DNA from: Gemmatimonadetes bacterium 13_2_20CM_2_65_7
Lineage (GTDB): Bacteria > Gemmatimonadota > Gemmatimonadetes > Gemmatimonadales > GWC2-71-9
Direction: 5' to 3'
DNA length: 64,000 nt
Assembly (NCBI GenBank): GCA_001915025.1
Contig: MNDR01000081.1
Coordinates: forward strand, 18,814 to 82,813
The notes under the pieces were generated by a model, which saw nothing but the letters and a program-made list of their open reading frames with translations, searched no databases and was not told the DNA's origin. Shown here piece by piece: positions 32,868-60,556 of this stretch. The position numbers and the translations under genes were made by a program. Within the stretch, counting starts at the first letter, position 1; each line of letters starts with the position of its first letter.

Positions 32868-32868
32868 C

Positions 32869-35087: not shown

Positions 35088-35279
35088 GAGGCGGCGAAGG
35101 TATCAGTGAGGTGGGGAGTTGTCTACGATGCGCATTCGTGCCCTGCTCGCGTGACGCGAGTCACACTCCGTTGGTTCGCGCGACAACGCCTGTTACGAGC
35201 GTGACCGAGCGGAGCGTCATTGGTCTTTATAGTATTCGACACTCACGCTAAGCACTGGTCGCAACAACCGGAGGTTTTG

Positions 35280-35961
35280 ATGCACGGAACACGATCGTTA
35301 CTCCTCCTCGCTCCCGTAGCGCTGCTCTTCACCGCTTGCAGCCCAACCGCACCCCACCCATCACAACGAATCAGTCTGTCGGCTACGATCGGGTCGGCCG
35401 CGCATTCCGCTGCGTCGGGCATCGCTGCGGACGTCATCGTCGGTGGGAGCGGCGGCAAGGTGCGCATCACGTCGGCCCAAATGGTGCTGTCTCACCTCAA
35501 GCTGGCGGGCGATGCGGCTTGCTCGAGCAGCTCTGACGGCGAGGCCACCGAGGCCGACGCCAGCGAGCCCGACGGCAACGACAACGACGAGAACGACTGC
35601 GAGTCCATGGATGTCGCGCCCCTGCTGATTGACCTGCCACTCGATGGGTCCACCAAGGTGATCCTCGACGCCGTCGTCCCGGCGGGTACCTACACCGGGT
35701 TGCGGGCGAAGCTCGAGGCGGTCGAGGGCGATGACGACGGCGCGAGCGCGTTTCTCACCGCCCACCCCGAATTTCAAGGCATCAGCGTGAAGGTCGGCGG
35801 CGTGGGGTAGCTGGTTCACGGACGCGTCCGGCGCTGTGATCGATCCTACGAACGCCGCGAACCAGGAGGCGATCGAGCAGGCCATTCGCGCGTCGCTCAG
35901 TGCGTTCGAAGATGACAACCACGACGGCAACGACGATCACGAGGCGAGCGGCGGCCACTAA
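35280..35961 (+). pseudogene. DUF4382-like lipoprotein gene interrupted by a +1 frameshift near 35791-35808
   Basis: Frame 0 runs from ATG 35280 (GGAGG SD; MHGTRSLLLLAPVALLFTAC) and ends at TAG 35808-35810. The +1 frame continues WGSWFTDASGAVIDPTNAANQEAIEQAIRASLSAFEDDNHDGNDDHEASGGH to TAA 35959-35961, directly before a strong terminator. Confidence 0.5.
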
Positions 35962-40950: not shown

Positions 40951-41556
40951 GTGAACCCAGTCCTCCAGGTCCAGGATTTACGCTACGAATTGTTGGGAGA
41001 CGGACGAGCGCTCGTCGACGGCGTTTCGTTTACCGTGGGCGTCGGAGAAACACTCGTGCTGCTCGGGCGCAGCGGGTCGGGGAAAACCACGACGTTAAAG
41101 CTCGTGAACCGTCTTCTCGTGCCGACGAACGGCGCCGTGCTGATCGCAGGCGAGCCGGAGGATCGCATCGAGCGGCGCGTGCGCGAGCTGCTCGTCCTGG
41201 TCGGTCTCGATCCCGATACGTTCGGTGCCCGCTTTCCGCACCAGCTCTCCGGCGGCCAACGGCAGCGCGTCGGCGTGGCCCGCGCCCTCGCCGTCGACCC
41301 GCCGCTGCTGCTCCTCGACGAGCCGTTCGGCGCGCTCGACCCGATCACGCGCCTCGAGCTGCAGCGCGAATTCCGCGGCCTCCAGGGCAGACTCGGAAAG
41401 GCTATGGTTTTCGTCACGCACGACGTGCGCGAGGGACTGTTGCTCGGCACGCGCCTCGGGTTGCTCGATGCCGGGCGGCTCATCTTCCTGGGAACGCCAG
41501 ATGAATTCCGCGCCAGCGCCTTGCCCGAGGTCCGTCAATTCATGGAAGCCGCCTGA
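40951..41556 (+). CDS. Osmoprotectant-type ABC transporter ATP-binding protein lacking the Q-loop segment
   Basis: GTG 40951 follows GAGGA. Walker A GRSGSGKTT, signature LSGGQRQRVGVARAL, Walker B LLLLDEPFGALD, VTHD. Only about 60 aa separate Walker A from the signature, against about 95-100 in this family (see finding). Confidence 0.75.
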   Translation: MNPVLQVQDLRYELLGDGRALVDGVSFTVGVGETLVLLGRSGSGKTTTLKLVNRLLVPTNGAVLIAGEPEDRIERRVRELLVLVGLDPDTFGARFPHQLSGGQRQRVGVARALAVDPPLLLLDEPFGALDPITRLELQREFRGLQGRLGKAMVFVTHDVREGLLLGTRLGLLDAGRLIFLGTPDEFRASALPEVRQFMEAA

Positions 41557-41591
41557 GGCTATTCCAGTTCTACGCCCGGCACGCGGGCGAA

Positions 41592-42182
41592 GTGGGGCTG
41601 CTCCTCGGCCAGCACATCGGCCTCGTGGCGATCTCGACCGGCTTCGCCTTGCTCATTGGTCTGCCGCTGGGCGTCCTCGTGGCGCGCCGGCCCGCCTGGC
41701 GGCGACCAGTCCTCGGCCTCGCGAACGTGTTCCAGACCGTCCCCAGTCTCGCGCTGTTCGGTCTCCTGATTCCGGTGTTCGGCATCGGCGCGTGGACCGC
41801 GATCACCGCCCTCGTCGTGTACGCGCTGCTGCCGATCGTGCGCAACACGTACGCGGGGATCACGGGCGTGGACCCGGCCGTCCGTGAGGCGGGTCGAGGG
41901 ATGGGGATGACCGACGGCGAGCTACTGCGACTCGTCGAGCTGCCGCTCGCCGCCGGCGTCATCCTCGCGGGTGTGCGCGTGGCGACGGTGGTGAGCGTCG
42001 GCATCGCGACCATTGCAGCCGCGATCGGAGCGGGCGGGCTCGGCGTCTACATCTTTCGCGGCGTGGCGACGGTGGATGACACGCTCATCCTTGCGGGCGC
42101 TATTCCTGCCGCGTTGCTCGCGCTGCTCGCGGATGCATTGCTCGGATTGGCAGAACGGAGGCTCGTCTGGCGCCCACGATAG
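41592..42182 (+). CDS. Osmoprotectant ABC transporter permease (OpuCB/ProW-like)
   Basis: FQTVPSLALFGLLIP, EAA-type loop AVREAGRGMGMTDGELLRLVELPLA. The conserved-looking upstream segment FQFYARHAGE has no canonical start, so the start is uncertain. Confidence 0.8.
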   Translation: MGLLLGQHIGLVAISTGFALLIGLPLGVLVARRPAWRRPVLGLANVFQTVPSLALFGLLIPVFGIGAWTAITALVVYALLPIVRNTYAGITGVDPAVREAGRGMGMTDGELLRLVELPLAAGVILAGVRVATVVSVGIATIAAAIGAGGLGVYIFRGVATVDDTLILAGAIPAALLALLADALLGLAERRLVWRPR

Positions 42183-42196
42183 TCCGTCTGCTGCTC

Positions 42197-43039
42197 GTGG
42201 CGATCGTTTTGTCGGGGTGTGGACGACGGGATCACATCGTCGTCGGCGCGAAGAACTTCACCGAGTCCGACCTGCTGGCCGAGATCGTCGCGCAGCAGAT
42301 CGAGCGCCGTACTGGACTGCCGGTCGAGCGCCGCCTGCACCTCGGCGGCACCTTCGTGTGCGACCGCGCCATCAAAGCCGGCAATATCGACCTGTACGTC
42401 GAGTACACGGGCACGGCGTTCACGGCGATCCTGAAGCAACGGCCGATCTCCGATCCCGACAGTGTGTATCGCTTCGTCGCGGCGACGTACGCGCGGCAGT
42501 TCCAGTTGCAATGGACCGCGCCGCTCGGCTTCAATAATACGTTCGCGATCCTGGTGCGCCGCACGGATGCGCAGCGCTATGGCTTGAGGTCGATTGGCGA
42601 TCTCGCCCGGGTGGCACCGCGCTGGAAAGCGGCATTCGGTTATGAGTTCCTGGAGCGCGCAGACGGCTTTGCGGGTCTCGCGAAGGTGTACGGCTTGACG
42701 TTCTCACGGCCGCCCAGCGCAATGGATCTCGGTCTCACGTACCGCGCGTTGGCTGACCATCGAGTGGACGTGATCGCCGGCAACTCGACCGACGGGCAGA
42801 TCGCGGCTCTCGATCTGGCGGTTCTGATCGACGATCACCGGTACTTCCCACCCTACCAGGCTGCGCCGATCGTGCGAGCGACGACCCTGGAGAAGTATCC
42901 TGCGGTAAGCCGCGCGCTCGCGGAGTTGGGAGGCAAGATCTCCGACGCCGAGATGCGCCGACTGAACGCGCTGGCAGACGTGGAGCATAAGGACATCGCT
43001 GAGATCGCGCGGGCGTGGCTCGCTGAACGGATCCCCTGA
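42197..43039 (+). CDS. Glycine betaine/osmoprotectant ABC transporter substrate-binding lipoprotein
   Basis: Lipobox VLSGC. VGAKNFTESDLLAEIVAQ...GNIDLYVEYTGTA...FNNTFAI... is typical of the OpuCC/OpuBC family. Confidence 0.8.
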   Translation: MAIVLSGCGRRDHIVVGAKNFTESDLLAEIVAQQIERRTGLPVERRLHLGGTFVCDRAIKAGNIDLYVEYTGTAFTAILKQRPISDPDSVYRFVAATYARQFQLQWTAPLGFNNTFAILVRRTDAQRYGLRSIGDLARVAPRWKAAFGYEFLERADGFAGLAKVYGLTFSRPPSAMDLGLTYRALADHRVDVIAGNSTDGQIAALDLAVLIDDHRYFPPYQAAPIVRATTLEKYPAVSRALAELGGKISDAEMRRLNALADVEHKDIAEIARAWLAERIP

Positions 43040-45115: not shown

Positions 45116-45895
45116 CTAACTACCGGTCGAAAACCGCACGGCGCCGATCTCGGTCAAATCGCGTAGCGTCGCCGCGATTTCGCCGGGACGAAGACCGGCC
45201 GCGCGCGCCAGGTCGTCCACCGTACGCGCGCCATCGGCGAAGCGCACCACGGAAGCGATGGCGTCGCTCGCGCGTGCCACCGCCACGCGTCCGTGACGCG
45301 AGCGCGCCACGATGAGGCGCGTTGCGCGCCGCGGAGCCTCGGGGGGCGTTGTCCACGGTTGCAGCAACTGGGGCAACACCGTTGGCAGGTCGTACTCCAG
45401 CTCGAGCAGCTCGGTGCCTTCAACCAGCTCGGGGGGGGGCGGGGGGGGCGGGGGCGGAACCACGGCCGGCCGATCGTCGTCGCGACCCGTATCGCGCCAC
45501 ACGCGCGGACCAGCCTCCACCACCATCATCGCTTCCTGGTAGCGCAGCAAATCCTTGTGATATGGCACTTCCTCGCCGGCGACGTACGCCGTGACCAGGC
45601 GCGCGACAGCATGCGCCGTGGCCCGCTCACCGAGCACCGCAGTCGCGAGCAGCGCGTCGAAGCCCGGTTGCCGCAACACCGCCTCGGGCCAGCGTGCGGT
45701 CACGCGCGCGAGCGCCCGCGAGTACTTGAAGAAATGGACAATGCGCTCGTGATAGAAATGCCGGGCGAGAAACCGCGCGAACCGCTCGACTTTCCCGGCG
45801 TCCACGAGCCCGCGCCCGCGCCACTCGGCCGACGCCCGGTAGGGCGCGTCGGCCAAGGCACGGATCACGTCGTCTTGCAGGGCCCGATCGTTCAC
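45116..45895 (-). CDS. Candidate MNIO partner protein: helical N-domain, poly-Pro linker, RRE-like winged helix
   Basis: GTG 45895 is in a GTGA overlap with the DUF692 stop. A PPPPPPPPPP linker. C-terminus RLIVARSRHGRVAVARASDAIASVVRFADGARTVDDLARAAGLRPGEIAATLRDLTEIGAVRF resembles PqqD/RRE domains (beta strands followed by a wHTH). Confidence 0.5.
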   Translation of the reverse strand: MNDRALQDDVIRALADAPYRASAEWRGRGLVDAGKVERFARFLARHFYHERIVHFFKYSRALARVTARWPEAVLRQPGFDALLATAVLGERATAHAVARLVTAYVAGEEVPYHKDLLRYQEAMMVVEAGPRVWRDTGRDDDRPAVVPPPPPPPPPELVEGTELLELEYDLPTVLPQLLQPWTTPPEAPRRATRLIVARSRHGRVAVARASDAIASVVRFADGARTVDDLARAAGLRPGEIAATLRDLTEIGAVRFSTGS

Positions 45896-46671
45896 AGCGC
45901 CGCCCGGATGCGGTCGACGCTTGAGAAGAGGACGTCGGCCGTGAGCGACGGTGAGAACGCGTCGAACGTCACCGCTCTTGTCGCAGGGCAGCGCGTCAGC
46001 GCGTGCGCCATGAAGTCGAGCATCGCGTCGCTCGGTGCCGTCGGAGCGATCCACGGACCCTCGAGATCGCGGTCTTGCTCCACGCCCGCGACGTGCACTT
46101 CGACCACATGCTCCAGCGGGAACTCGGCGAGCCAGGCTTGGGGCGTGAGGCCACGGTAATGCGCCTCGAGCCACACGTGCGGCAGATCGAGCAGGAACCC
46201 GGTTCCGGTCGCGTCGAAGAAGCGCCGCAGCCATACGGGCTCAGGCATCTGACTGGCGTGCACATCGAAGAAACCGGGGATGTTCTCCATGACCAGCGGT
46301 TGGTCGAGGCGCGCCTTGAGGGCGTTGGCGTTGGTGACGAACCGCGCTAGAAACTCTTCCGTGTAGAGCGGCGGGAAGACGTAGTTGAGATTGTAGGTCC
46401 CGTCCTCCGTGTGCAGGCACTGAAAGTGCTCGGCCACCCAGGGCGAGTCGTACAACCCGGCCAGGGAGCGGGCCCGTTCGATGGCGCGATCATCGAGCGG
46501 CTCCGAGAGCTGACCCAGATAGTCATGCAGCAGCAGCGTGTAGCGCTGTTTGATCGCGGGCCAGTGCCGATCGCCCGCCGCCGGTGGGTCAGCCATGGCC
46601 AGATGATCGATGTTGCGGGCCGCCGCGAGCTCGGCGCCGAGGTGCGGATTGTAGAATGCGCCGACCATCAT
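45892..46671 (-). CDS. DUF692 / MNIO-family (MbnB/TglH-like) multinuclear non-heme iron enzyme
   Basis: TIM-barrel xylose-isomerase-like pattern. LLLHD, SPWVAEHF, LVMENIP, FLLDLPHVW and EVHVAG correspond to the conserved His/Glu/Asp-bearing strands of UPF0276/DUF692. ATGA overlap with the upstream gene. Confidence 0.7.
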   Translation of the reverse strand: MMVGAFYNPHLGAELAAARNIDHLAMADPPAAGDRHWPAIKQRYTLLLHDYLGQLSEPLDDRAIERARSLAGLYDSPWVAEHFQCLHTEDGTYNLNYVFPPLYTEEFLARFVTNANALKARLDQPLVMENIPGFFDVHASQMPEPVWLRRFFDATGTGFLLDLPHVWLEAHYRGLTPQAWLAEFPLEHVVEVHVAGVEQDRDLEGPWIAPTAPSDAMLDFMAHALTRCPATRAVTFDAFSPSLTADVLFSSVDRIRAAL

Positions 46672-47690
46672 ACGATGAATCCCTGTTCCGCGAGCCGATC
46701 CACGAACACCTTCACCTGCGCCGCGATCATCGGTTTATCGCCTCGGTCCGTCCATTCGGCGGCAATCGCTTCGTAGCGCGTCCGGCCGTCGAGCTGCGCG
46801 ACGATGAAGCGCTCGCGCTCCCCCCAGGTCGCGGCCGCGGCGTGAGCCGCGGTGGTTGCGCGCGCGGGCGCGAACTGGGCTGCGACGATGGCGTCGATCG
46901 ATCGCGCACTGTCGGGTTCGAGTCGCCTTGCGCCGGCCAGGTTTTGATCGACTTGCTCGACGGTGCGTGCGCCGGCCAACACGATGTTGACGCCAGGTCG
47001 CGAATACACCCATGCAAGGGCCAGCGCGGCGAGCGTGAGACCGGCGCGCTGCGCGATTGGGCGCAGTCGTTCGATCACCTGTTGCCGCCGTGCGAATTCC
47101 GCTCCCTTGAACCAATAGATCGCGCCGCGGTGATCGCCGGGCGCAAATATCGGGGCGGAGGCAGCGCCGTACTTGCCGGAAAGCAGCCCCGATGCCAGCG
47201 GCCGGTATGCCAGAAATCCCAGTCCCTGCTGTTGGCACGTCGGGATCTCGCGCTCTTCCGCGTCGCGGTCGAACAGGTTGTACGCACCCTGATAGGTAAC
47301 GATCGGAGCGATTTCTGTCGCGCGCTGGATCTGCAAGTGCGTCGCGTTGCACAGTCCAATGGCGCGCGCCTTGCCTTGCTCCTGGAGCTCGTGGAGCTGC
47401 TCGAGCTGCGCTTCCCACCCGGGCAGCGCCTCGTGCAGCTGTAGCAGATCGACGTAATCGCTGTCGAGCCGTCGCAACGATGCCTCGAGCGATGTGCGTG
47501 GATCAGCGCGCGGGCCGACCTTCGTGGCAATCGCAATCGCTTCGCGCCGCTCGCGCAAGACACGGCCGTCGTGCTGTCCTGACCCACTCCAGCCGCTACC
47601 TCCGACCGCCCAGGCGCCGAACCCCAGCATGGGTTGGGTGCCGGTAAAACGCGACAGGGGCCCGAAGTTCATTCGGGCCCCCGCATGCAT
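46668..47690 (-). CDS. Aldo/keto-reductase-like protein lacking the DTA..YG catalytic segment, with a PqqD-like C-terminal tail
   Basis: AKR pattern LGFGAWAVGG...IATKVG...SLRRLDSDYVDLLQLH...GKARAIGLCN...YQGAYNLFDR...GFLAYRPLASGLLSGKY...VLAGARTVEQVDQNL. About 31 aa are missing between GQHDG and RVLRERRE. Tail FIVAQLDGRTRYEAIAAEWTDRGDKPMIAAQVKVFVDRLAEQGFIV. Start at ATG 47690 (GGAG SD) or 47672. Confidence 0.65.
   Translation of the reverse strand: MHAGARMNFGPLSRFTGTQPMLGFGAWAVGGSGWSGSGQHDGRVLRERREAIAIATKVGPRADPRTSLEASLRRLDSDYVDLLQLHEALPGWEAQLEQLHELQEQGKARAIGLCNATHLQIQRATEIAPIVTYQGAYNLFDRDAEEREIPTCQQQGLGFLAYRPLASGLLSGKYGAASAPIFAPGDHRGAIYWFKGAEFARRQQVIERLRPIAQRAGLTLAALALAWVYSRPGVNIVLAGARTVEQVDQNLAGARRLEPDSARSIDAIVAAQFAPARATTAAHAAAATWGERERFIVAQLDGRTRYEAIAAEWTDRGDKPMIAAQVKVFVDRLAEQGFIV
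47657..47681 (-). promoter_or_regulatory. Perfect 10-bp GC-rich hairpin just downstream of the short ORF, covering the alternative AKR start codon
   Basis: mRNA GGGGCCCGAA-UGAAC-UUCGGGCCCC. ATG 47672 sits at the loop/stem edge. A UUUU run follows 11 nt later. Confidence 0.4.
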
Positions 47691-47703
47691 GCTGCCGCTC
47701 CGG

Positions 47704-47796
47704 TTAGGAGTGGCAGGTGGGCTGCAGCTCGCTCGTCTCGACGATTTCGGGACGATGACAGCTGGGCACCAGTTCCTGCGTTTCAACGATCTGCAT
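47704..47796 (-). CDS. Candidate RiPP precursor peptide, 30 aa: MQIVETQELVPSCHRPEIVETSELQPTCHS
   Basis: GGAGG, then 4 nt, then ATG. Tandem 12-aa repeat IVET(Q/S)EL(V/Q)P(S/T)CH, with synonymous third-position differences between the two DNA copies. First gene of the MNIO operon. Below the ORF-track length cut-off. Confidence 0.5.
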   Translation of the reverse strand: MQIVETQELVPSCHRPEIVETSELQPTCHS

Positions 47797-47938: not shown

Positions 47939-48880
47939 ATGATTCAGATCGCGAGCCTCCTCACCGAGCAAGCCCTCGCCGACGAGTTCGTCAATTCGTT
48001 GGCGGCCCGGCGCCTCGACGAGAAGTTCTTCTATTGGTTCCCCCTCTCCGTGCGTGCCTGGCTGGCGCTCTGCTCCGATGGAGCGTACCGGAACTTCGTC
48101 CGCTCGCGATCACTGATCGCGCAATCCAGGGCGGAGCTTGCGGGCCAGACGCCCGCGGGCGAGATCGAGGTCCTCAGTCTCGGCGCAGGACAAGGGGACA
48201 AGGACGTGCTGCTGCTCGAGGCGTTGCGCGGGCACGGCCGGAGTGTCCGCTATGTCCCCGTGGACGCGAGCCAGGGCCTGCTCGAAATCGCGTGCCAGAG
48301 CGCCGGCGACGCCGGGTTTCCCGCGCAGGGAATCAAGGCCGACGTATCGCGCGCCGATCATCTCCGCGCCCTGGCAGCCGATTCTCGAACTCCGCCACGA
48401 CTCGTGATGATGCTGGGGAACACGCTCGGCGCGTTCGATCCGCTGGCGATGGCGCGCGCGCTGCGGGAACTCCTGCGGCCGGCCGATCTCCTGCTCGTGG
48501 ATGGTGAGGTGTACGCCGGCGATACCGTCGCCGGCTATGACAACCTGCTGAATCGCCGGTTCGCGTGGGCTCCGCTGCACTCGGTCGGCATCGACGAAGC
48601 GGATGGCGAGCTGCGGTTCGAAGTGCGGGACGACCCGCGCCTTCCCGGTCTCTACCCGCTCGCGAAATACTTCGCGCCCAGCCGTGACGTCGTGGCCCGC
48701 GTTGGCGGCGAAACACTGGCTCTCGCCGCCGGCGAACGCGTCGAAATGAATCACTCGTACAAATACTCGGCGGACACATTCACCCGGATTCTCGCAGACG
48801 CGGGACTCAAGGTCCGCTGGCGCGGAACGAGCGACGACGGCCGATTCCTCATGGTGCTCGCGGAGCGAGGGCTGCGATGA
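47939..48880 (+). CDS. SAM-dependent methyltransferase, EgtD-like (Methyltransf_33-type) fold
   Basis: KFFYWFP..., VLSLGAGQGDKDVLLLEAL, YVPVDASQGLL, MLGNTLGAFDP, LLLVDGEV, and the C-terminal HSYKYS pattern run parallel to the EgtD motifs (KyfYD, ELGsGts.Kt, Y.PiDis, flGStiGNf, LLlG.D, S.Ky). Start at ATG 47939 (GGAG SD). Confidence 0.5.
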   Translation: MIQIASLLTEQALADEFVNSLAARRLDEKFFYWFPLSVRAWLALCSDGAYRNFVRSRSLIAQSRAELAGQTPAGEIEVLSLGAGQGDKDVLLLEALRGHGRSVRYVPVDASQGLLEIACQSAGDAGFPAQGIKADVSRADHLRALAADSRTPPRLVMMLGNTLGAFDPLAMARALRELLRPADLLLVDGEVYAGDTVAGYDNLLNRRFAWAPLHSVGIDEADGELRFEVRDDPRLPGLYPLAKYFAPSRDVVARVGGETLALAAGERVEMNHSYKYSADTFTRILADAGLKVRWRGTSDDGRFLMVLAERGLR

Positions 48881-50148
48881 GCGCCCGAATCATCCGTACC
48901 TACTTCGCGATCACATTTCTCTTCAACCTGGCCATGTCCCTCATCTGGGGCGTTGACACGTTGTTCAAGCTCGGCGCCGGCCTCGACATTTTCCAGGTCA
49001 TGCTCACCAACGCCGCATTCACCGCCGGCTCCATGGTGTTCGAGATCCCGACCGGCGTGGTGGCCGATACCGTCGGGCGCCGAGTGTCGCTGCTGCTGAG
49101 TCTCGGCACACTGTTCATCACGACGTTGCTTTACGTCAGCGCGGCGTGGCGCGGCTGGGGCTTCGCCGCGTTCTGCTGGATCTCGGTGTTTCTAGGCTTG
49201 GGATACACGTTCTACACGGGAGCGGTGGATGCCTGGCTCGTGGACGCCCTGAAGGCCACGGGCTACAGCGCGCCGCTCGAACCGGTCTTCGCACGCGGGC
49301 AGATGATGTTCGGCGTGGGAATGTTGCTCGGGACGATCTCGGGGGGATTGCTGGGCCAGATTCATCTCTACATCCCATATCTCGTTCGCGCCGGGGTGGT
49401 GATCCCGCTGTTCGCGCTGGCGTGGTTCGGGATGCGGGAGGTCGGCTTCACTCCCCGCGCACTCGAGTTGCGCCGCGTGCCGGCCGAGCTGCGGCGGTTG
49501 TTCGTCGAGGGGATGGATTATGGGCTGCATCATCGAGTCGTCCGGCCGGTGATGCTCGCGTCGCTCGTGACGATGAGCTTCATGATTTTTGGCTTCTACA
49601 GTTGGCAGAAGTACTTCCTCGATCTATTGGGGAAGAATCTCATCTGGGTCAACGGTGTGATCAGCTCGCTCGTCGGGCTCGCGCTGATCGCTGGGAACGC
49701 GCTCGTGCCCAGTGTGTCGCGCGTGGTCGGCACGCGTACCGGCGTGCTCACGCTCAGCATCGTCGTCCAGGCGGCGACCGCGACCGCGTGTGGCGCGCTG
49801 GGACTGCTCGCCCCGGGTCCCGCTACGTTTTATATCGTCGTGCTGCTGTATCTCGTGTATGGCGTGGCACTGGGCGTATCGATGCCGGTCAAGCAAGGCT
49901 ACCTGAACGCCCACATCCCATCCGCTCAGCGCGCGACGATCATTTCACTCGACGCGTTTTTCGCGAGCCTGGGCGGTGTGGTGGGCCAGACCACCTGGGG
50001 GTACCTGGCGCGGCTGCGCGGTCTTGCGACGGCGTGGGTAGCGGGAGGGTTGGGTCTCGTGCTCGCGGTGCCGCTCTATCTACAGGCGCGCCGCCGCGAC
50101 AAGACACTGGACCGGTTCGAACAGGAGGCTTCGCATGTCACAGCCTGA
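48877..50148 (+). CDS. MFS transporter
   Basis: Twelve TM helices. DTVGRR motif between TM2 and TM3. ATGA overlap with the upstream methyltransferase. Confidence 0.8.
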   Translation: MSARIIRTYFAITFLFNLAMSLIWGVDTLFKLGAGLDIFQVMLTNAAFTAGSMVFEIPTGVVADTVGRRVSLLLSLGTLFITTLLYVSAAWRGWGFAAFCWISVFLGLGYTFYTGAVDAWLVDALKATGYSAPLEPVFARGQMMFGVGMLLGTISGGLLGQIHLYIPYLVRAGVVIPLFALAWFGMREVGFTPRALELRRVPAELRRLFVEGMDYGLHHRVVRPVMLASLVTMSFMIFGFYSWQKYFLDLLGKNLIWVNGVISSLVGLALIAGNALVPSVSRVVGTRTGVLTLSIVVQAATATACGALGLLAPGPATFYIVVLLYLVYGVALGVSMPVKQGYLNAHIPSAQRATIISLDAFFASLGGVVGQTTWGYLARLRGLATAWVAGGLGLVLAVPLYLQARRRDKTLDRFEQEASHVTA

Positions 50149-51675: not shown

Positions 51676-51957
51676 CGTCAGGATAACAATACGTGCGCGG
51701 CCGAATGGCGTGCACGCAACTTTCACCCTGGCTTCAGCGACACCATATCCGACCGGCGTAGTCGCGCTCCACTATCGGCATTAACCCTCGCTGCACGGCT
51801 GCCGCGATATCATTCGCGCGATGCCGCGCGCCGGCGTCGTGGCAGTGGCACCACGATCTGTAAGCCCTTGCGACGGAACGCGCTCGACATGTGAACATTC
51901 GGTACACCGCTTGCCTTCGTGCGGAGTTGCAAATCCTCATTCATGGAGGCAAGCGTT

Positions 51958-52623
51958 ATGTCCAACCCGAGATTGCTCGCCGGACTGACGGCGACCGCGG
52001 TGACCGCGGCGATCGCGCTGGTCGTCGGAAGCTGCGAGGCGAACCACACAGCGCTGGCGCCGAAGGTCGGTGGGCCGCGGTTCCACTTCGGTGCATTTGA
52101 GTGTACTCCCTTCAAGATGACCGGCGGTGGCCGCATCGATTATCCGGACGGCACGGCTGACAAGAATCCGCCGGCGAGCCACACCTACGAGACATTCGGC
52201 GCGCACGTGTTTGGCTCCGGTCAAACGGATGCGACTGGCACGTGCCTGGCCGACAAGGGCGCGTTGGAATGGATCGATCACCGGCCGGGGATGGAGCTCA
52301 ACGGACATCCCCTCAACCTCCATGCGACGTCGGTGACCTTCGCGGAACACCCGACAGACACCGACTGCACTGACGGCGCAGCGCATTGGGGCGGGAAGCT
52401 GCGGGTGCAGAACACCGGACAGGAGGATCTCGATTTTGAAGTGTTCGATTGTGACAACGGTGAGCCTGGCGTCGGTCACGACGGGTTCGCCATCAGGGTG
52501 TTAGAGCCCATCGACGGACTGGGGGACTATGAGGTGACGTGCCCGGATCCGGACCTACCACCGGCGGAGCCATCCTGCACGCTGACGGGTGGGAACAGGC
52601 AATTCCATCCAACCCACTTGTGA
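51958..52623 (+). CDS. Lipoprotein, Cys-rich, unknown function
   Basis: GGAGG SD. MSNPRLLAGLTATAVTAAIALVVGSC lipobox. Several further Cys residues downstream of the lipobox. Confidence 0.45.
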   Translation: MSNPRLLAGLTATAVTAAIALVVGSCEANHTALAPKVGGPRFHFGAFECTPFKMTGGGRIDYPDGTADKNPPASHTYETFGAHVFGSGQTDATGTCLADKGALEWIDHRPGMELNGHPLNLHATSVTFAEHPTDTDCTDGAAHWGGKLRVQNTGQEDLDFEVFDCDNGEPGVGHDGFAIRVLEPIDGLGDYEVTCPDPDLPPAEPSCTLTGGNRQFHPTHL

Positions 52624-52665
52624 GCCCGGACGCATATGCGTACCGAGATGGCTAAGGAGGATACA

Positions 52666-53313
52666 ATGAACATCGATAGCATCCGGCGGGCGATCCGTTT
52701 TGCGGGACTCGTCCTGCCCTTGACCTGGGCGCCGGGCTCCATGGCAGGCCAAATGCGGGCCGCGCAAGCCCAGTCATTCGGCGTCGGCGTGACCACGGCG
52801 ACGGTCAATCAGCAGGCACCGTCAGCCGTGTTGCCGGCAGGTGGCACAATGGCGCAGGATCAGGCCAGCAACGTCTCGATCGCCGACATGGTGACGGCGC
52901 AGGACGCGTTCGCAATCGTCGCGGGCGACGGGACGGACGCCTCGGACGCCGTGAGCAGCGCGACGCTCGGACAAGTGAGCATCCTCAACGGTTTGATAAC
53001 CGCGGATGGAATCGTCGCGATGGCGAGTAGCACAGTCGACGGAGGCGGCGCGAACAGCAATGCCGAGGGTTCGAGTCTCGCGAACCTGGTCGTGAACGGC
53101 GTGCAGGTGTCCGACCCCGCTCCGAACACGCGCATGGACTTGCCCGGCGTGGGCTACGTCGTGTTCAACGAGCAGATCCCGACGGGCGATGGCGTCACGA
53201 GCAGCGGGATCACCGTCAACATGATCCACGTGGTGTTGCAGCAGCTCGGGCTTTTCGGCTATGAGACGACGGGCGAGATCATCGTCGGGTCGGCGTCGAG
53301 TGGCGTGAACTAG
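52666..53313 (+). CDS. Secreted protein, unknown function (resembles choice-of-anchor-type proteins, weak recollection)
   Basis: AAGGAGG SD. Signal peptide. Pattern ...SSLANLVVNGVQVSDPAPNTRMDLPGVGYVVFNEQ...ITVNMIHVVL. Confidence 0.4.
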   Translation: MNIDSIRRAIRFAGLVLPLTWAPGSMAGQMRAAQAQSFGVGVTTATVNQQAPSAVLPAGGTMAQDQASNVSIADMVTAQDAFAIVAGDGTDASDAVSSATLGQVSILNGLITADGIVAMASSTVDGGGANSNAEGSSLANLVVNGVQVSDPAPNTRMDLPGVGYVVFNEQIPTGDGVTSSGITVNMIHVVLQQLGLFGYETTGEIIVGSASSGVN

Positions 53314-53462
53314 TCTCAGATCCCGGGCGGCGTGCTTCGTGCACGTCGTCCGGGATCAGATCGCGGCGTAGCCGAAACGAAGGTGGGCCCGAGGACGGTG
53401 GAAGCGCCACGCACCGGCAGTCGCGGCAAAGCTCAGACTCGTCGCGAGAAATTCGCGCCGCT

Positions 53463-56400
53463 TCAGTGGGCCACCCCGAACGTGTACACGGTGCGCGAGC
53501 GGTAGGTCGCACCGGGACGCAGGATCGTGGAAGGGAAGTTGGGATGATTGGGCGAGTCGGGAAAATGTTGCGTCTCGAGGCACAGCCCCGTCCGATACGC
53601 GTAAGCGAGGCCACCCTTTCCTTTAATGGTGCCGTCGAGAAAGTTGCCCGAGTAGAATTGCACCCCCGGCTCGGTCGTGCTGATCTCAACCGTCCGCCCG
53701 CTGGCGGGGTCTACGAGACGCGCCGCAGGTACCAGGCCGGTTTGGCTGCCGCGATCGAGCACCCAGTTGTGGTCATACCCACGGCCATAACGCAACTGCG
53801 TGTTCTCCTGCGCAAGGCGCTCGCCGATCCTCGTCGGGGTGCGAAAATCGAACGGCGTCCCCGCCACCGGAGTGATTTCGCCCGTCGGAATCAGCGTCGA
53901 GTCAACCGGCGTGAACGCGGCTGCGTTGAGCGTCAGCATGTGGTCGAGAATCTCGGCGCCCCCCCCACCGGTCGTGCCGAGCAAGTTCCAGTAGGTGTGC
54001 TGTGAGAGATTGACCGGCGTGGCTTTGTCGCTGGTGGCTTCGTAGTCCACGACAAGCTCATCACGCGGAGTGAGCGTGTATGTCACGCGCGTGACGAGCG
54101 TTCCCGGGAAGCCTTCTTCTCCATTCTTGCTCGTGTAGCGCAGCGTGACTCCGACGCCGCTGTCGGTCTGGAACGGCTCGCCGGTCCACAGGACCTTGTC
54201 GAATCCGCGCACCCCGCCATGCAGCGTGTTCGGGCCATTGTTCGTCGCAAGGCGATAGGTGGTGCCGTCGAGCGTGAACTGCCCACTGGCAATCCGATTG
54301 GCATAGCGGCCGACGATCGCACCGAAGTACGGCGAGTCTTTCAGGTATCCGGCGAGACTGTCGTAGCCGAGCACGATGTCGTCGAAGTGGCCGGAGCGGT
54401 CCGGTGTGTGGACGACGGTGATGATGCCGCCGTACGTCATCACCCGGACCTCGATGCCGTGCGCATTGGTGAGCGTCAACAGCTCGACGCTGCGCCCGTC
54501 GGGCAGCTTCCCGAATGGCGCGCGCGTCACGCCAGCGTGCGATGGTGTTGTCGTCGTGTCGCGGAGCACAAAGAGCACCGAGGGATCAATTGGATAGCGC
54601 CCGAATTGCGCGCCATAGATCGCCAGCCCACCTGGTAGCGCGGCATCAACCTCCAACCTAACGATCATCTCACCGGTGCGGGCACCTTCACGAATCGCGT
54701 CGGCGGGAACGGGCACGTGCAACAGCTCGCCGTATGATCCGGCTTCGTAGAGATGTCCATCATGCGGCTGCGCATGCCAGCTCAGAATGCCGCGCGAATC
54801 GGCGGGATCGTCGGGCAGGTCCCAGCGGGGGCCCGCAAGCTGACCGTTGACGCGCACCGTGACGGCGCTGCGAAACGGCGTCACACCAGTCATCGGATAG
54901 CTGTTGGGATTGCGGCTCGGATCGTGGAAGCCGCCGCCGCGCATGTAATCGCCATTGTCCGCCATCGTCGAGTCACGATCCTTGCCGTTCAAACGCTTGG
55001 CGGATGCCTCGACGAGAAATGTCGCGCTTGCGACGTCCTTGACGTCGAGCCCGGCGGGCCACGGAATGCGGTACTCGAAGAACCCGCTGCCGGCGCCGTT
55101 CAGTTTGTGATCGCCGAGGACGTTCCATTGTTTGAGCGTCCAATGGGCATCACGCACGGCGGTGGCCGGCACATGGGCGATCCGCACGCGCCGTCCGTCA
55201 GCCAGCGTCGCAACCGCCGGCGCCTCGCCTTCTACGATGAATGTCGTGAAGTTGCGCTGTAGGACGGAGTCTTTCGCATCCTCGAGCCGCGTCGCCAGCA
55301 CCAACGTAGCCGGCTCGTTCGGCATTGTGATCGTGAGCGGCGCGAGGGGCTGCGACATCCACGGCCGGTACGGCACGCGCCTCACGGACGTGTCCCACGT
55401 GCGTCGCTCGCCTAGCGCATTCCACCCGTACAGCTCGGCACGCAGCGTAAGTGAGTCACCGAAGCTGGTGCTGCCGGTCAGGAACGACGCGTAGAGCGGC
55501 ACCTCAACGTGCTCGCCGGGACGAACCGTGCGGCTCAGCTCCGGATCGCCCACCGCGATGTAGAGTGGCGCGTGCAGGTCGCGCAGCGACATGCCCGGCA
55601 CGATGTCGCCGAAGCCCGTTTCCTTCCACGAACGGTCGTAGCGCCAGTAGCCGTTCCACTCGTTGATCACGTCATGGTGCTCCGTATACAGCCAGCCGCA
55701 GATCTTGGGGTGACGGCGAAATGCGTTGATGGCGCGGTGGTAATCCCAGCTCCAATCCACGTCGCCGGTGCTGCCCTCGTAGCCCCACACGTTCCCGAAC
55801 TCCGAGTTACACATCGGCTGCCGTGCCTGCCGCCAGGCCGACCGGAAGTTCCAGGTCGAGCCCGGGAACGTGCTGTCGCTCACCTGCTGGTCGTGCGTCT
55901 CCCAGCGCCAGCCAGGCAAGTACTCGTGCCACGTATTGAGATCGGTCTCGGTGTGTCCGCTGCCGCAACACACGGAGTTGTCTTCGATGAGTCGTGTGGG
56001 ATCGAGCGACTTCGCCAAACGGTAATCGCGCACGACGCGACGCTCGGTCTCTGGCAAATAGCGATCGCGTCCATCGACTTTCGTCTCGAGACCCCATGTC
56101 TCGTTGAAGAGCACCCAGGCGAACACCGACGGATGATTGTAGTCGCGTTCGATCATGCCGCGCAGCGCGGTATCGTGCTCGCGAAACGCCGCGGAATCGG
56201 GTGGTCCCCACCAGTTCGGTACATCGGCCATGATGAGCACACCCAAGCGATCGGCCCAATACAGTTTGCGCGGCGCTTCGATCTTGACGTGTTCTCTGAG
56301 TCCGTTCAGGCCGATCCTACGGGCGCGCTGGATCTCGTCGCGGAGCACGCTGTCGGAAGGAAACGTGTAGTAGCCTTGCGGATGGTACGCCTGGTCGAGC

Positions 56401-57371
56401 GCCACCTGCAGATAAACGGGCGTGCCGTTGAGCGCGACGTAGCGGTACGTCGTGCCGGGCACGTTGACGACGCCGATCGTCCGCATGCCGAAATAGGTTT
56501 GCACGCGGTCTTCGGCCATTCCGGTGCCGCTCACACGCACGACGACGTCGTGCAAGAACGGATCATCGAGCGACCAGCGACGTGCGCCGGGCAGCGGCAC
56601 GTCGAGGTGCACGGAGCGTGTGCCGCGGGGAATGCGATGCGTCACCGTGGGCCCCGTGGCCCCCCCCCCGCCGGCGCGATTGGTGAACGCGAGTTGCAGC
56701 GTGAGCGCCCGCGGCGCCGGCTCGAGCAGTCGCACGTCGACGCCGACCCCCGCGAGGTCGGCCTCCGGTGTGAAGTGCACAAATTCCAATGGATCGCTGC
56801 CGCGCGCCTCGAGGTACACGGTCTGCCACATGCCGCGCGCTTTTCCGTAGCCCTGCTTGCCCTCGAGCTTGAAGGGGTGCGGTGAGTCGTCCACGCGGAC
56901 CACGAGCCGCTGCGACGCACCAGTTGTTGCCTGCGTCAGCTCGAAGGAGAACGGGGTGTAGCCGCCTTGATGGTCGCCCAACTTCCGGCCATCGAGCCAC
57001 GCGCTTGTCCGCCAGTCCGATGCGCCGAACACGAGAAACACGCGACGTCCCCCCCCGTGCCACGCGGCGGGCACGGTGATGGTGCGGCCATACCAACCGA
57101 TGTCACCGCTATCGGGAATCCCGGAGAGCGGCGCGCCCCAGGAAAACGGCACGAGAATCTCCCGTCCTGCGGGTAGCCCGCGGCTCGGCCAGCCCTCGCG
57201 TTCCCCGCTGTCTTGTGGATCGAACGCGAAGTGCCAGCGGCCGTTGAGATTGAGCCATTGTGCGCGTTGGAAGTCGGGGCGCGGATGCTCAAGAAGCGGA
57301 ATACTGTCGGTGGTGCTGGAGTGACTCGCGGTGCCGAACAGTGCCAGGAGGAGCGTTACGCCTCGTTTCAC
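53463..57371 (-). CDS. Fusion protein: glycoside hydrolase family 2 (beta-galactosidase-like) + aldose 1-epimerase (mutarotase)
   Basis: Signal peptide. GH2 sugar-binding domain (WYGRTITVP...ASDWRTSAWLDGRKLGDHQGGYTPFSFEL). Catalytic NHPSVFAWVLFNETW and CNSEFGN. C-terminal roughly 350 aa: VRVMTYGGIITVVHTPDRSG...IVLGYD...YFGAIVGRYANRIA...TLHGG..GFDK..W...HTYWNL...GYDHNWVL...PGVQFYSGNFL is GalM-like. Confidence 0.8.
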   Translation of the reverse strand: MKRGVTLLLALFGTASHSSTTDSIPLLEHPRPDFQRAQWLNLNGRWHFAFDPQDSGEREGWPSRGLPAGREILVPFSWGAPLSGIPDSGDIGWYGRTITVPAAWHGGGRRVFLVFGASDWRTSAWLDGRKLGDHQGGYTPFSFELTQATTGASQRLVVRVDDSPHPFKLEGKQGYGKARGMWQTVYLEARGSDPLEFVHFTPEADLAGVGVDVRLLEPAPRALTLQLAFTNRAGGGGATGPTVTHRIPRGTRSVHLDVPLPGARRWSLDDPFLHDVVVRVSGTGMAEDRVQTYFGMRTIGVVNVPGTTYRYVALNGTPVYLQVALDQAYHPQGYYTFPSDSVLRDEIQRARRIGLNGLREHVKIEAPRKLYWADRLGVLIMADVPNWWGPPDSAAFREHDTALRGMIERDYNHPSVFAWVLFNETWGLETKVDGRDRYLPETERRVVRDYRLAKSLDPTRLIEDNSVCCGSGHTETDLNTWHEYLPGWRWETHDQQVSDSTFPGSTWNFRSAWRQARQPMCNSEFGNVWGYEGSTGDVDWSWDYHRAINAFRRHPKICGWLYTEHHDVINEWNGYWRYDRSWKETGFGDIVPGMSLRDLHAPLYIAVGDPELSRTVRPGEHVEVPLYASFLTGSTSFGDSLTLRAELYGWNALGERRTWDTSVRRVPYRPWMSQPLAPLTITMPNEPATLVLATRLEDAKDSVLQRNFTTFIVEGEAPAVATLADGRRVRIAHVPATAVRDAHWTLKQWNVLGDHKLNGAGSGFFEYRIPWPAGLDVKDVASATFLVEASAKRLNGKDRDSTMADNGDYMRGGGFHDPSRNPNSYPMTGVTPFRSAVTVRVNGQLAGPRWDLPDDPADSRGILSWHAQPHDGHLYEAGSYGELLHVPVPADAIREGARTGEMIVRLEVDAALPGGLAIYGAQFGRYPIDPSVLFVLRDTTTTPSHAGVTRAPFGKLPDGRSVELLTLTNAHGIEVRVMTYGGIITVVHTPDRSGHFDDIVLGYDSLAGYLKDSPYFGAIVGRYANRIASGQFTLDGTTYRLATNNGPNTLHGGVRGFDKVLWTGEPFQTDSGVGVTLRYTSKNGEEGFPGTLVTRVTYTLTPRDELVVDYEATSDKATPVNLSQHTYWNLLGTTGGGGAEILDHMLTLNAAAFTPVDSTLIPTGEITPVAGTPFDFRTPTRIGERLAQENTQLRYGRGYDHNWVLDRGSQTGLVPAARLVDPASGRTVEISTTEPGVQFYSGNFLDGTIKGKGGLAYAYRTGLCLETQHFPDSPNHPNFPSTILRPGATYRSRTVYTFGVAH

Positions 57372-57471
57372 GTCGGCAATTCTACTCCACTACCACGAGG
57401 CGGTCCACGACTCCATGTTCCAAGACACCTTCAACTTCTCCCCCCGCGACCCGCTATTTAGGAGAATCGAC

Positions 57472-58074
57472 ATGGCCTCCCGAACACTGGCAAAACGGAG
57501 AGATGGAAAGGAGAAGCGGGTTCGAGCAGCTCCCGCTCGACCTGCAGTCCCCCCCCCGGAGACGATTCCCGAGAGGCGTGTGCGTGCGCCGGCGCGGCTC
57601 TATACGACCAAGAACGATTTGCCCGAGACGACTCGCGTCGAGGTGATCGAGCTCCTCAATCAGCGCCTCGCCGACTGCATCGATCTCCAGACACAGTGCA
57701 AGCAGGCGCACTGGAACGTGAAGGGCCCCTCGTTCATCGGACTGCACAAGCTGTTCGACGATGTCAACGAGGATGTCGAGGGCTACGTGGATCTGATCGC
57801 CGAGCGCATCGTGCAGCTGGGCGGCATCGCCGAGGGCACCGTGGGTGCGGTCGAAGGGCGTTCGTCGCTGCCGGACTACCCGCTCGCGTTATCGGACGGC
57901 GCGGAGCATGTGGCCGCATTGTCGGATGCACTCGCGGCGTTCGGGCGGACGGCGCGCATCGGCATCGAGGAAATGAACGAGCTCGAGGATACCGACAGCG
58001 CCGATCTGCTGACCGAGATCTCGCGCGGCGTCGACAAGTGGCTGTGGTTCGTGGAAGCGCACCAGCAGGCCTAA
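57472..58074 (+). CDS. dps: Dps (DNA starvation/stationary-phase protection protein) with Lys/Arg-rich N-terminal tail
   Basis: AGGAG SD. LNQRLADCIDLQTQCKQAHWNVKGPSFIGLHKLFD...DLIAERI, the ferroxidase-centre motif pattern of Dps. Confidence 0.85.
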   Translation: MASRTLAKRRDGKEKRVRAAPARPAVPPPETIPERRVRAPARLYTTKNDLPETTRVEVIELLNQRLADCIDLQTQCKQAHWNVKGPSFIGLHKLFDDVNEDVEGYVDLIAERIVQLGGIAEGTVGAVEGRSSLPDYPLALSDGAEHVAALSDALAAFGRTARIGIEEMNELEDTDSADLLTEISRGVDKWLWFVEAHQQA

Positions 58075-58358
58075 CGCGCTAACGGCCGCGGCGCCGGCTC
58101 GAACATGAGCTGGTCGACAAAACAGAATCCCCAATCCTCACCAGGCTCGAAGCTGCGCATGATGGGGTGTTTGGTCTTGTGGAAGTGCTTCGTGGCGTGC
58201 CGGTTGGGCGAATCGTCGCAGCAGCCGACGTGACCGCACTCGAGGCAGAGCCGCAGGTGCACCCACTCGTCGCCGCTCGCCAGACATTCCTCGCACCCGT
58301 CGGGCGTTTTCGGCTCGACGGCGCGGACCTGCGCGAGATGCTTGCATTGTTGGGCCAT
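58071..58358 (-). CDS. UBP-type zinc-finger protein
   Basis: C.EC....WVHLRLCLECGHVGCCDDSPNRHATKHFHKTKHP, the zf-UBP Cys/His pattern. Confidence 0.75.
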   Translation of the reverse strand: MAQQCKHLAQVRAVEPKTPDGCEECLASGDEWVHLRLCLECGHVGCCDDSPNRHATKHFHKTKHPIMRSFEPGEDWGFCFVDQLMFEPAPRPLAR

Positions 58359-58395
58359 GCTAGAAGCTCTTCCGTTGGGTGGTAGTATTCAAGCG

Positions 58396-60087
58396 ATGAC
58401 CGCCACGACTGTTCCACCCAAAACCACTCCTGCCGCCGCCGCGCGACAGGCGGAGGCGTTTCCGCGGCTGACGGCGGCGCAGATCGCCCGCATTGAGCCC
58501 CACGGCCGCCGGCGCCTTGTCGAGCCGGGCGAGGTGCTCGGCGACGCAGGTGAGCCCGTGACGAAAATATTCGTGGTCGTGTCGGGACGGCTCGATCTCG
58601 TTCGCCCGCCGCGCTGGGTCGGCGAGGAAGTGCCGAGCTTCAGCGAGGGGATGTTTACGGGCGAGCGTTCGATCCTGGCCGGCGGTCGCTTCCTGGCCCG
58701 CATTCAGGCCAGCACGCCCTGTGAAGTCATCGAAGTCGGCCGCGAGTCGCTGCTCGAGTTGATTCGGACCGACCCCGAGTTGAGCGACATGTTTCTCCGG
58801 GCGTTCATCCTGCGCCGCCTGCAGCTGATCGATCAAGAATTCGGTGACGTGCTGCTGCTGGGATCGAATCACTGCCAGGGCTCGCTCCACATCCGCGAGT
58901 TTCTCACGCGCAATGGGCACCCCTACAAATTCGTGGATCTCGACAACGACTCCGACAGCCAGCAGATGCTCGATCAGTTCCGCGTGAGCGCCGGGGACAT
59001 ACCCGTCGTGATCTGCCGCGGCAGCATCGTGCTGCGCAATCCCACGATTCAACAGGTGGCCGACTGCCTTGGCCTGAATCCCACAATCGATCGGACGGCG
59101 ATCTGCGATGTCGTCATCATCGGGGCAGGGCCGGCTGGACTCGGCGCCGCCGTGTATGCCGCATCGGAAGGCCTGAGCGTCGTGATGATCGAAGCGAACG
59201 CACCCGGCGGTCAGGCGGGGACAAGCTCGCGCATCGAAAACTATCTGGGCTTCCCGCTCGGCATCTCGGGACAGGAGCTGGCGGCTCGAGCGTATGATCA
59301 GGCCCAAAAATTTGGAGCGAAGATCCTGATCGCCAAGTCCGCCGTCCGGCTCGACTGCGACAAGAAGCCCTACCGCATCCTGCTGGGCGAGGGAGAGGGC
59401 GATCCGCTGCTCACGCGCGCGATCATCATCGCGAGCGGCGTCGAATACCGGCGCCTCGCGATCGACACCCTCTCACGGTTCGAGGGTGCCGGCGTCTACT
59501 ACGCTGCTACGCCCATGGAAGCACAGCTCTGCACCGGCGAGGAGATCGCCATCGTGGGCGGCGCGAACTCGGCGGGTCAGGCGGCGGTGTTCCTGGCGGA
59601 GTCCGCGAAGCGCGTGCACATGCTGATTCGATCCGACGGGTTGTCGCAGACGATGTCCCGTTACCTGATCAGTCGCATCGAAGCGCACCAACGGATCGAG
59701 CTCCATACGCGCACCGAGATCGTGGGCCTCGAGGGTAATGGTCATCTGGAGCACGTCGCATGGCGTGCGGGACGCAACGGACCGGTGGAGAAGCAGAACA
59801 TTCGCCACGTCTTCACCATGACCGGAGCGGAGCCGAGCACGAAGTGGCTCGCCGGATGCCTGGCGCTCGACGCGAAGGGGTTCATCAAGACGGGATCCGC
59901 GCTGACCGCGGACGAGCTGTCGGCAGCGAAGTGGCCGCTGCATCGCCCGCCCCATCTCCTCGAGACGAGCTTGCCTGGGGTGCTCGCGGTGGGCGATGTG
60001 CGCAGCGGGAGCACCAAGCGCGTCGCGTCCGCCGTTGGTGAAGGCTCGATCGCGGTCGCGACCGTGCATCAGATCCTGGCCGAGTAG
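58396..60087 (+). CDS. Cyclic-nucleotide-binding domain fused to thioredoxin-disulfide reductase-like FAD oxidoreductase
   Basis: N-terminal cNMP-binding fold (FTGERSILAGGRFLARIQA). DVVIIGAGPAGLGAAVYAASEG. Second dinucleotide motif IAIVGGANSAGQAAVFLA. GVLAVGDVR. Confidence 0.8.
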   Translation: MTATTVPPKTTPAAAARQAEAFPRLTAAQIARIEPHGRRRLVEPGEVLGDAGEPVTKIFVVVSGRLDLVRPPRWVGEEVPSFSEGMFTGERSILAGGRFLARIQASTPCEVIEVGRESLLELIRTDPELSDMFLRAFILRRLQLIDQEFGDVLLLGSNHCQGSLHIREFLTRNGHPYKFVDLDNDSDSQQMLDQFRVSAGDIPVVICRGSIVLRNPTIQQVADCLGLNPTIDRTAICDVVIIGAGPAGLGAAVYAASEGLSVVMIEANAPGGQAGTSSRIENYLGFPLGISGQELAARAYDQAQKFGAKILIAKSAVRLDCDKKPYRILLGEGEGDPLLTRAIIIASGVEYRRLAIDTLSRFEGAGVYYAATPMEAQLCTGEEIAIVGGANSAGQAAVFLAESAKRVHMLIRSDGLSQTMSRYLISRIEAHQRIELHTRTEIVGLEGNGHLEHVAWRAGRNGPVEKQNIRHVFTMTGAEPSTKWLAGCLALDAKGFIKTGSALTADELSAAKWPLHRPPHLLETSLPGVLAVGDVRSGSTKRVASAVGEGSIAVATVHQILAE

Positions 60088-60124: not shown

Positions 60125-60144
60125 TTCCTGCTGTACCGCGGTGG

Positions 60145-60493: not shown

Positions 60494-60556
60494 GTAATCG
60501 GTCACTGGCTTGTCGCTCGGCTGAACAATCGATAGAAGGTCAAGAAAAGTCAAGCA

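Follow-up and report, generated by a model that had tools for sequence, protein, structure and literature searches.

Fusion of a RiPP recognition element (RRE) to a tailoring enzyme is well known in the biosynthesis of peptides that are made on the ribosome and modified after translation (RiPPs), as in the cyanobactin heterocyclases TruD (4bs9) and LynD (4v1u), and oxidative enzymes that depend on multinuclear non-heme iron (MNIOs) are described together with dedicated partner proteins in the TglHI, ApyHI and HvfBC/BufBC pairs. Nicotinamide-dependent reduction of a ribosomal peptide also has a precedent in ElxO, a short-chain dehydrogenase of a lanthipeptide pathway that has no RRE-like domain and uses NADPH to turn the pyruvyl group at the N-terminus of epilancin 15X into a lactyl group. 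Here we describe a locus in a 64,000-nucleotide stretch of the Gemmatimonadetes bacterium 13_2_20CM_2_65_7 (contig MNDR01000081.1, positions 18,814 to 82,813; the whole stretch is referred to below as the window), in which a gene for an aldo-keto reductase (AKR) with a PqqD/RRE-like C-terminal tail lies between a short precursor peptide gene and an MNIO gene. The explanation that best accounts for the data jointly, and which we hold to be rather probable, is that the window carries a privately deleted copy of a conserved and otherwise intact AKR-tail family, whose members would carry out tail-docked, NADPH-dependent carbonyl reduction.

The closest characterized relatives of the reductase are the AKR11 enzymes of Bacillus subtilis, IolS (AKR11A1, 1pyf) and YhdN (also GSP69, AKR11B1, 1pz1), which have the catalytic tetrad and the NADPH motifs in common with an intact ortholog of the window protein, P0001. 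Unlike the AKR11 enzymes, the family described here carries a linker and a PqqD-like tail of about 55 residues and occurs only within a peptide-MNIO operon, and the window copy is in addition shorter by 34 residues that include the catalytic Asp and Tyr. As in TruD and LynD, a catalytic domain encoded in a precursor-peptide cluster bears a small helical module of PqqD-like type, although here the fold match of the tail is non-significant (E 0.41 or worse) and its model contains no three-stranded sheet. As in the TglHI, ApyHI and HvfBC/BufBC pairs, the MNIO gene here has a partner gene after it, of ApyI/HvfC-like type; the MNIO itself is nearest to ApyH and BufB in profile searches and to TglH among solved structures, but all scores fall far under the equivalog cut-offs. 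ElxO offers a precedent for reducing, on a ribosomal peptide, a carbonyl that a different enzyme has put there, whereas the enzyme considered here is an AKR and bears an RRE-like tail.

The literature searched yielded no AKR as an RRE-fused enzyme and no AKR in an MNIO cluster, and it held nothing relevant that links MNIOs with ergothioneine, EgtD with RiPPs or DUF692 with Gemmatimonadota; a survey of RREs likewise makes no mention of the AKR-tail architecture. In the text of a 2025 landscape survey (PMC12452194), the repeated ELxP[S/T]CH substrate motif, the AKR-tail fusion and an EgtD-like methyltransferase do not appear among the MNIO cluster types. Both the AKR-tail family and the cluster conserved around it in Gemmatimonadota are apparently undescribed. 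An RRE-tailed AKR would be a kind of reductase with no earlier link to RiPP recognition domains, here fixed in a widespread soil-bacterial operon whose five genes make a compact, testable system in which to look for new MNIO chemistry.

A private deletion in the window reductase gene

The reductase gene and the genes on either side of it comprise the following features, all on the minus strand:

46668..47690, minus: AKR-RRE fusion gene, deleted allele (340 aa, compared with 371-376 aa in orthologs)
46884..47690, minus: remaining AKR (beta/alpha)8 domain, residues 1-269 (profile, PDB-sequence and ortholog alignments)
between 47567 and 47568, minus: junction of a private 102-bp (34-codon) in-frame deletion (DNA alignment to locus L001; haplotypes; blastn against 10 near-identical contigs)
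46671..46829, minus: PqqD/RRE-like helical tail, residues 288-340 (TWGERERF...GFIV; sub-threshold PqqD match and AlphaFold2 model)
45892..46671, minus: MNIO (DUF692) enzyme, 259 aa (PF05114, 8.9e-26)
45116..45895, minus: MNIO partner protein (259 aa; its GTG start and the stop of the MNIO gene overlap), with a helical N-terminal domain and a C-terminus of winged helix-turn-helix (wHTH)/RRE type
47704..47796, minus: precursor peptide gene, 30 aa (MQIVETQELVPSCHRPEIVETSELQPTCHS), two ELxP[S/T]CH repeats, GGAGG 5 nt upstream of the ATG

The reductase open reading frame (ORF) runs from 47690 to 46668, starting at an ATG (MHAGAR...) with GGAG 9 nt upstream. As judged by its profile matches, the encoded family belongs to the aldo-keto reductase superfamily, of which the window copy is a truncated member: Pfam Aldo_ket_red matches at 8e-46, with residues 42-269 corresponding to profile positions 52-290 of 291, and the first ~51 profile positions are left unmatched. 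IolS (1pyf) and YhdN (1pz1) are the best solved-structure relatives, bearing out the sequence-only reading that the protein follows the AKR template, and their alignment to the window protein begins only at chain residue ~68, with GFGAWAVGG matched separately and weakly. Of the Asp-Tyr-Lys-His tetrad, Lys (IATK) and His (LQLH) are retained and Asp and Tyr are missing. With the alpha1 and beta2 segment deleted, the window copy is not a full-length (beta/alpha)8 barrel (PF00248). Its NADPH motifs are in place (GLCNAT, YQGAYN, YRPLASGLL and VLAGARTVEQVDQN), and the motifs for NAD(P)H binding (GxCN, YQxxYN, RPLAxGLL and LxGARxxxQVxxN) are conserved at the level of sequence.

The missing segment is present in P0001 (374 aa), which is 99% identical to the window protein and has 34 additional residues, AAEREAAVRHAADRGITWFDTAPTYGNGASEMLL, between GQHD and GRVLRE. 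These align to LDTAYIYGIGRSE and IDTAPAYGFGQSE of IolS and YhdN, respectively, that is, to the Asp and Tyr of the tetrad, and P0001 as a whole aligns end to end with both enzymes (residues 22-288 against IolS, E = 3.7e-42). At the DNA level, the window and locus L001 are near-identical apart from one clean 102-bp gap, and the remainder of the gene is colinear, which rules out a shifted Asp/Tyr, a wrong start or a wrong frame. Lost with the gap are helix alpha1 and strand beta2, along with catalytic residues Asp61 and Tyr66 (P0001 numbering). The loss of the Asp/Tyr segment had been noticed from the letters alone and is upheld by the alignments to the AKR11 structures and P0001; the stretch had been put at about 31 aa and measures 34 aa (102 bp), and the junction, placed at about 47562-47567, falls between 47567 and 47568. 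Because a barrel strand and two catalytic residues are lost, the window reductase is expected to be inactive and is probably misfolded; five AlphaFold2 models of the window protein gave mean predicted local distance difference test (pLDDT) values of 55-75, with the junction segment below 50.

The deleted allele is confined to the window. Nearly all of more than 100 close relatives found by database search measure 370-376 aa and so exceed the window protein by about 34 aa, and eight independent metagenome contigs whose MNIO is identical to that of the window, and whose DNA is 99-100% identical to it, all encode an intact 374-aa AKR. The 340-aa window sequence has no exact match in a collection of 15 billion proteins, with three alternative starts tried; by contrast, the window's MNIO and its 30-aa peptide are both present in the same collection.

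We compared 51 distinct AKR sequences drawn from 54 loci of GTDB species-representative genomes and metagenome contigs. Asp61 and Tyr66 are kept in 50 of the 51 and Lys91 and His120 in all of them, the NADPH motifs are conserved, and loss of catalytic residues is limited to the window sequence. The 54 species-level loci (53 from Gemmatimonadota, one from Actinomycetota) have the same neighbors in essentially every case, and a distant relative, P0173 in locus L071, shares the cluster core and matches Aldo_ket_red profile positions 1-290. On these alignments, the family can be placed among the AKR11-like NAD(P)H-dependent oxidoreductases; its tetrad is intact, and a variable linker joins the domain to a PqqD/RRE-like three-helix tail of ~55 residues.

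The contig carrying the window has at least three private deletions of 100-131 bp within 12 kb, at 35804/35805, 41153/41154 and 47567/47568, two of which destroy essential motifs. The one at 41153/41154 is an in-frame loss of 126 bp that takes 42 residues, including the Q-loop region, out of the cluster's ProV-like ATP-binding cassette (ABC) ATPase; the segment is retained in the near-identical loci L074 and L075, in L008 and in ~45 distant orthologs. The deletion at 35804/35805 (131 bp) shifts the frame of a hypothetical gene that encodes 270 aa in L075, and with it the notion that all deletions of the contig are in frame, which might have hinted at design or selection, can be set aside. Repeat-mediated slippage is likewise ruled out as their cause, as microhomology at the junctions is only 1-4 nt. 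Whether they reflect strain decay or assembly noise, these deletions argue against the AKR gap being an adaptation. Since the loss of Asp and Tyr is unique to one sequence and the same contig carries other private deletions, we take the window gene to be a recently inactivated or mis-assembled copy of an active-type enzyme and not an evolved pseudo-enzyme.

Two strain haplotypes (window 47400-47700 against L061-L068) differ exactly in the segment that is missing from the window, reading GCCGCGGAGCGT... in one and GTTGCCGAACGT... in the other, with almost identical flanks. The comparison contigs also have losses of their own relative to the window, of 31-37 bp and at other positions, and the assemblies of this population are therefore rich in short indels.

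These observations bear on whether the 102-bp gap is an artefact of assembly or consensus calling, in which case the organism would encode the intact 374-aa enzyme. Such an origin would be in keeping with the crowding of three private 100-131-bp deletions into 12 kb, two of them in essential motifs, with the position of the gap precisely where the two population haplotypes diverge, with the 31-37-bp indels of the comparison contigs and with the absence of the deleted allele anywhere else. It is harder to reconcile with the 1-4 nt of junction microhomology, which leaves a k-mer assembler no long repeat across which to jump, or with the ~21 kb of the window (25979-35600 and 51748-63200) that match other contigs without large indels, and genuine microhomology-mediated deletions look just the same. 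We regard an artefact as unlikely, albeit with real weight behind it.

The tail and the peptide-MNIO operon

The C-terminal tail had been likened, from the letters alone, to the helical part of PqqD/RRE domains. The resemblance holds for that part, and the tail appears to be a truncated version of the fold. The PqqD profile (PF05402) scores 16.9 bits against the whole protein (residues 295-339) and 20.4 bits against the tail alone, compared with a gathering score of 23.4, and covers only profile positions 21-67, the helical part. PqqD is nonetheless the top Pfam family in 40 of 40 orthologous tails (best E = 2e-5, all sub-threshold and limited to the helical two-thirds), and for this reason the likeness exceeds chance. 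An AlphaFold2 model of the tail built from a 40-sequence alignment (pLDDT 82.6) has three main helices after two short ones, and in the whole-protein model the tail region reaches a pLDDT of 90-96.

Foldseek returned no significant match of the tail in the PDB; the best was TruD (E 0.41, probability 0.82, TM-score 0.49), followed by LynD and assorted winged-helix domains, all likewise non-significant. A tail profile run against PDB sequences found only spurious prohibitin matches (E ~0.3), and a search with a tail profile gave only 28 matches among 1.84 billion representative proteins. Nine of these were examined: eight are AKR fusions or fragments thereof, one with an extra weak second match, and the ninth, the zinc-finger repeat protein P0170, has no AKR domain and looks spurious. 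The tail is also the best conserved part of the protein, with a mean pairwise identity of 72% as compared to 65% in the AKR domain and 44% in the linker. We conclude that the tail represents an offshoot of the PqqD/RRE fold that is truncated and specific to AKRs, and we call it RRE-like and not an RRE because it falls below the PqqD threshold and its model lacks the sheet. The gene does stand where an RRE would be sought, clustered with genes for a precursor peptide and tailoring enzymes.

Immediately upstream, the precursor ORF ends 13 nt before the AKR start. Conservation of the peptide far exceeds that of the surrounding enzymes: it is identical between loci whose AKRs are only 63% identical, and its exact 30-aa sequence was found on 287 contigs. 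The (I/V)VExxELxP[S/T]CH repeat, in which Cys-His is invariant, occurs twice in Gemmatimonadota, three times in the Actinomycetota metagenome-assembled genome of L059 (8926-9039) and four times in the distant relative L071 (5272-5469).

On its other side, the AKR stop overlaps the MNIO start by 4 nt, in agreement with the physical link to the MNIO that had been read from the letters. The MNIO matches ApyH (3.8e-28) and BufB (1.1e-23) best among NCBIfam models, both far under their cut-offs, and its nearest solved structure is TglH (8hci, 1.6e-12). Downstream of it lies the partner protein, which has weak winged-helix Pfam matches and whose orthologs match NCBIfam ApyI in 15 of 17 cases (best 6.4e-8) and the HvfC RRE family in 13 of 17; a partner profile run against PDB sequences reached only weak generic wHTH regulators and did not reach TglI. 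The AKR protein has no match to the MNIO-partner families (TglI/ApyI/HvfC/DUF2063-type). It is the ApyI/HvfC-like protein encoded after the MNIO that takes the established partner role, and the earlier suggestion that the AKR is a new type of MNIO partner was overstated, given a separate partner with a complete wHTH/RRE-type C-terminus.

Where a locus is long enough to be assessed, the order peptide-AKR-MNIO-partner is kept in essentially every case. The AKR-tail family is shown in this way to be tied genetically to the precursor, the MNIO and the MNIO partner, and it is probably tied to them translationally as well. Among full-length orthologs with enough flanking sequence, none with the AKR-tail architecture was found outside peptide-MNIO clusters, the opposite outcome having been named beforehand as one that would refute the sequence-only reading; the exception is P0177, on a 2.3-kb contig where no cluster is visible.

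A proposed role for the AKR-tail family

In the mechanism that we propose, the tail would anchor the reductase to the precursor peptide itself or to a complex of the peptide with the MNIO and its partner. Oxidation by the MNIO would create an aldehyde or ketone at the Cys(-His) motif of the peptide, and the AKR domain would then reduce this MNIO-made carbonyl with NADPH. In the window strain, if the deletion is real, the reduction step would be lost and the tail would be kept, together with the translational coupling to the MNIO.

Several points weigh against this proposal. The carbonyl intermediate is a conjecture, and peptide binding is attributed to a tail whose PqqD similarity stays under the Pfam gathering threshold and whose model contains no three-stranded sheet of the kind that forms the usual leader-binding groove of an RRE. 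In a profile comparison by hhalign, the tail and the C-terminal RRE of the partner align with a probability of 14.5%, over the xxVxxLDGxxT motif only. In addition, the AKR gene carries lesions in 3 of the 51 genomes (the window, L030 and L038) and the MNIO is intact wherever checked; the reductase step may therefore be dispensable, perhaps the most dispensable of the pathway. The lesions of L030 and L038 differ from that of the window: the L030 AKR (9215-10159) has an in-frame 60-aa deletion between GKYAM and VAIVLAGAR with its tail intact, and the L038 AKR (8076-9192) has a frameshift near residues 76-84.

If the tail does not recognize a leader, the AKR could be an ordinary small-molecule reductase of the pathway whose substrate is a cofactor, a released product or a compound to be detoxified, with the tail serving as an oligomerization or protein-docking module. 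C-terminal elements mediate oligomerization in many AKRs, and the tail's helical model without a beta-sheet or a significant structural match, its sub-threshold PqqD score and the lack of meaningful hits in the PDB-sequence profile search are all compatible with such a role, as is the complete RRE-type domain already supplied by the partner. This explanation would, however, leave it to coincidence that PqqD is the top family for all 40 tails, that the tail is found only on AKRs, of which the full-length ones with enough flank all lie in peptide-MNIO clusters save P0177, and that the gene sits between the precursor and the MNIO in translational coupling; we hold it to be improbable.

The weakest of the alternatives is the one originally advanced from the window alone, in which an AKR fold that had lost Asp and Tyr evolved into a pseudo-enzyme, serving the MNIO complex not as a catalyst but as a recruited scaffold or peptide-binding subunit: although the in-frame deletion spares the tail as well as the 4 nt shared with the MNIO start, another in-frame deletion, of 60 aa in L030, also leaves the tail intact, the tail is conserved above the catalytic domain and the singleton P0177 has lost its Tyr (to Leu) and His (to Ser), we consider this very improbable in view of the full tetrad in 50 of 51 distinct orthologs and in all eight contigs with an identical MNIO, the restriction of the deleted allele to this one sequence, the loss of barrel strand beta2, which makes a folded scaffold unlikely (AlphaFold2 mean pLDDT 55-75, junction <50), the similar private deletions in unrelated genes of the contig, the canonical MNIO partner already present, and the lack of relatives or cluster context for P0177. 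The comparison with orthologs has largely refuted the pseudo-enzyme. When catalytic residues are missing from a lone metagenome-derived sequence, such a check is needed before a pseudo-enzyme is called. Scaffold use of a dead enzyme, if true, would have been a new way of building an MNIO complex. Among the PDB matches, the nearest precedent for an AKR fold as an auxiliary subunit is Kv-beta (AKR6), whose members retain their catalytic residues and bind NADPH; nothing in this locus points to a role of that kind.

P0177 (L072, 411-1703) is a distant AKR-tail protein (37% identity) with Tyr66 changed to Leu, His120 to Ser and altered cofactor motifs, and it is possibly a natural dead variant. A naturally dead AKR-tail clade around it was considered and rejected, as it is a singleton with no close relatives and no peptide or MNIO gene on its 2.3-kb contig.

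Flanking genes and the possible product

Returning to the docking-and-reduction proposal, the genes that flank the core give an indication of what the pathway may produce. They are the following:

47939..48880, plus: divergent EgtD-like (Methyltransf_33) methyltransferase (PF10017, 6.6e-24; EgtD TIGR03438, 2.2e-17)
48877..50148, plus: efflux-type transporter of the major facilitator superfamily, conserved with the cluster
40951..43039, plus: betaine/choline-type ABC transporter, conserved with the cluster, its ATPase carrying a private deletion
40951..41556, plus: ProV-like ATPase of this transporter
41592..42182, plus: permease (ProW-like) of this transporter
42197..43039, plus: OsmF/OpuAC-like binding protein of this transporter

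The EgtD-like methyltransferase adjoins the cluster in essentially all loci. Its likely start is MIQIASLL, within a mechanical ORF that begins at 47885, and solved structures of EgtD match the window protein at 1.6e-9. Taken with the betaine-type transporter, the EgtD-like enzyme suggests that a quaternary ammonium group is part of the product. The joint proposal that the tail guides the reductase, that the AKR domain reduces an MNIO-made carbonyl and that the product bears a quaternary ammonium group is a tentative one, somewhat less likely than not. Doubtful, and put forward as a long shot, is the more specific idea that the core makes an undescribed peptide-derived class that unites a modified Cys-His unit and a quaternary ammonium group in one product (examples would be a compound resembling a thio-histidine-betaine, or a metallophore with N-trimethylated Cys or His) by way of an RRE-guided AKR carbonyl reduction new to RiPP biosynthesis, with the tail still docking where the AKR is damaged, as in the window and L030. 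Ergothioneine-like chemistry of the product is pure speculation.

The surroundings of the core vary among lineages. An EamA-type exporter occurs in many loci and was not identified in the window. Lineage-variable accessory genes are inserted in L041 (10075-11226), L005 (10932-12140), L002 (9909-10607) and L045 (~12030-12990). In some lineages, a secreted alpha/beta-hydrolase-like protein is encoded between the AKR and the MNIO, and in some the MNIO and its partner are separated by a gene for an LssY_C protein, a 232-aa protein or a secreted repeat protein.

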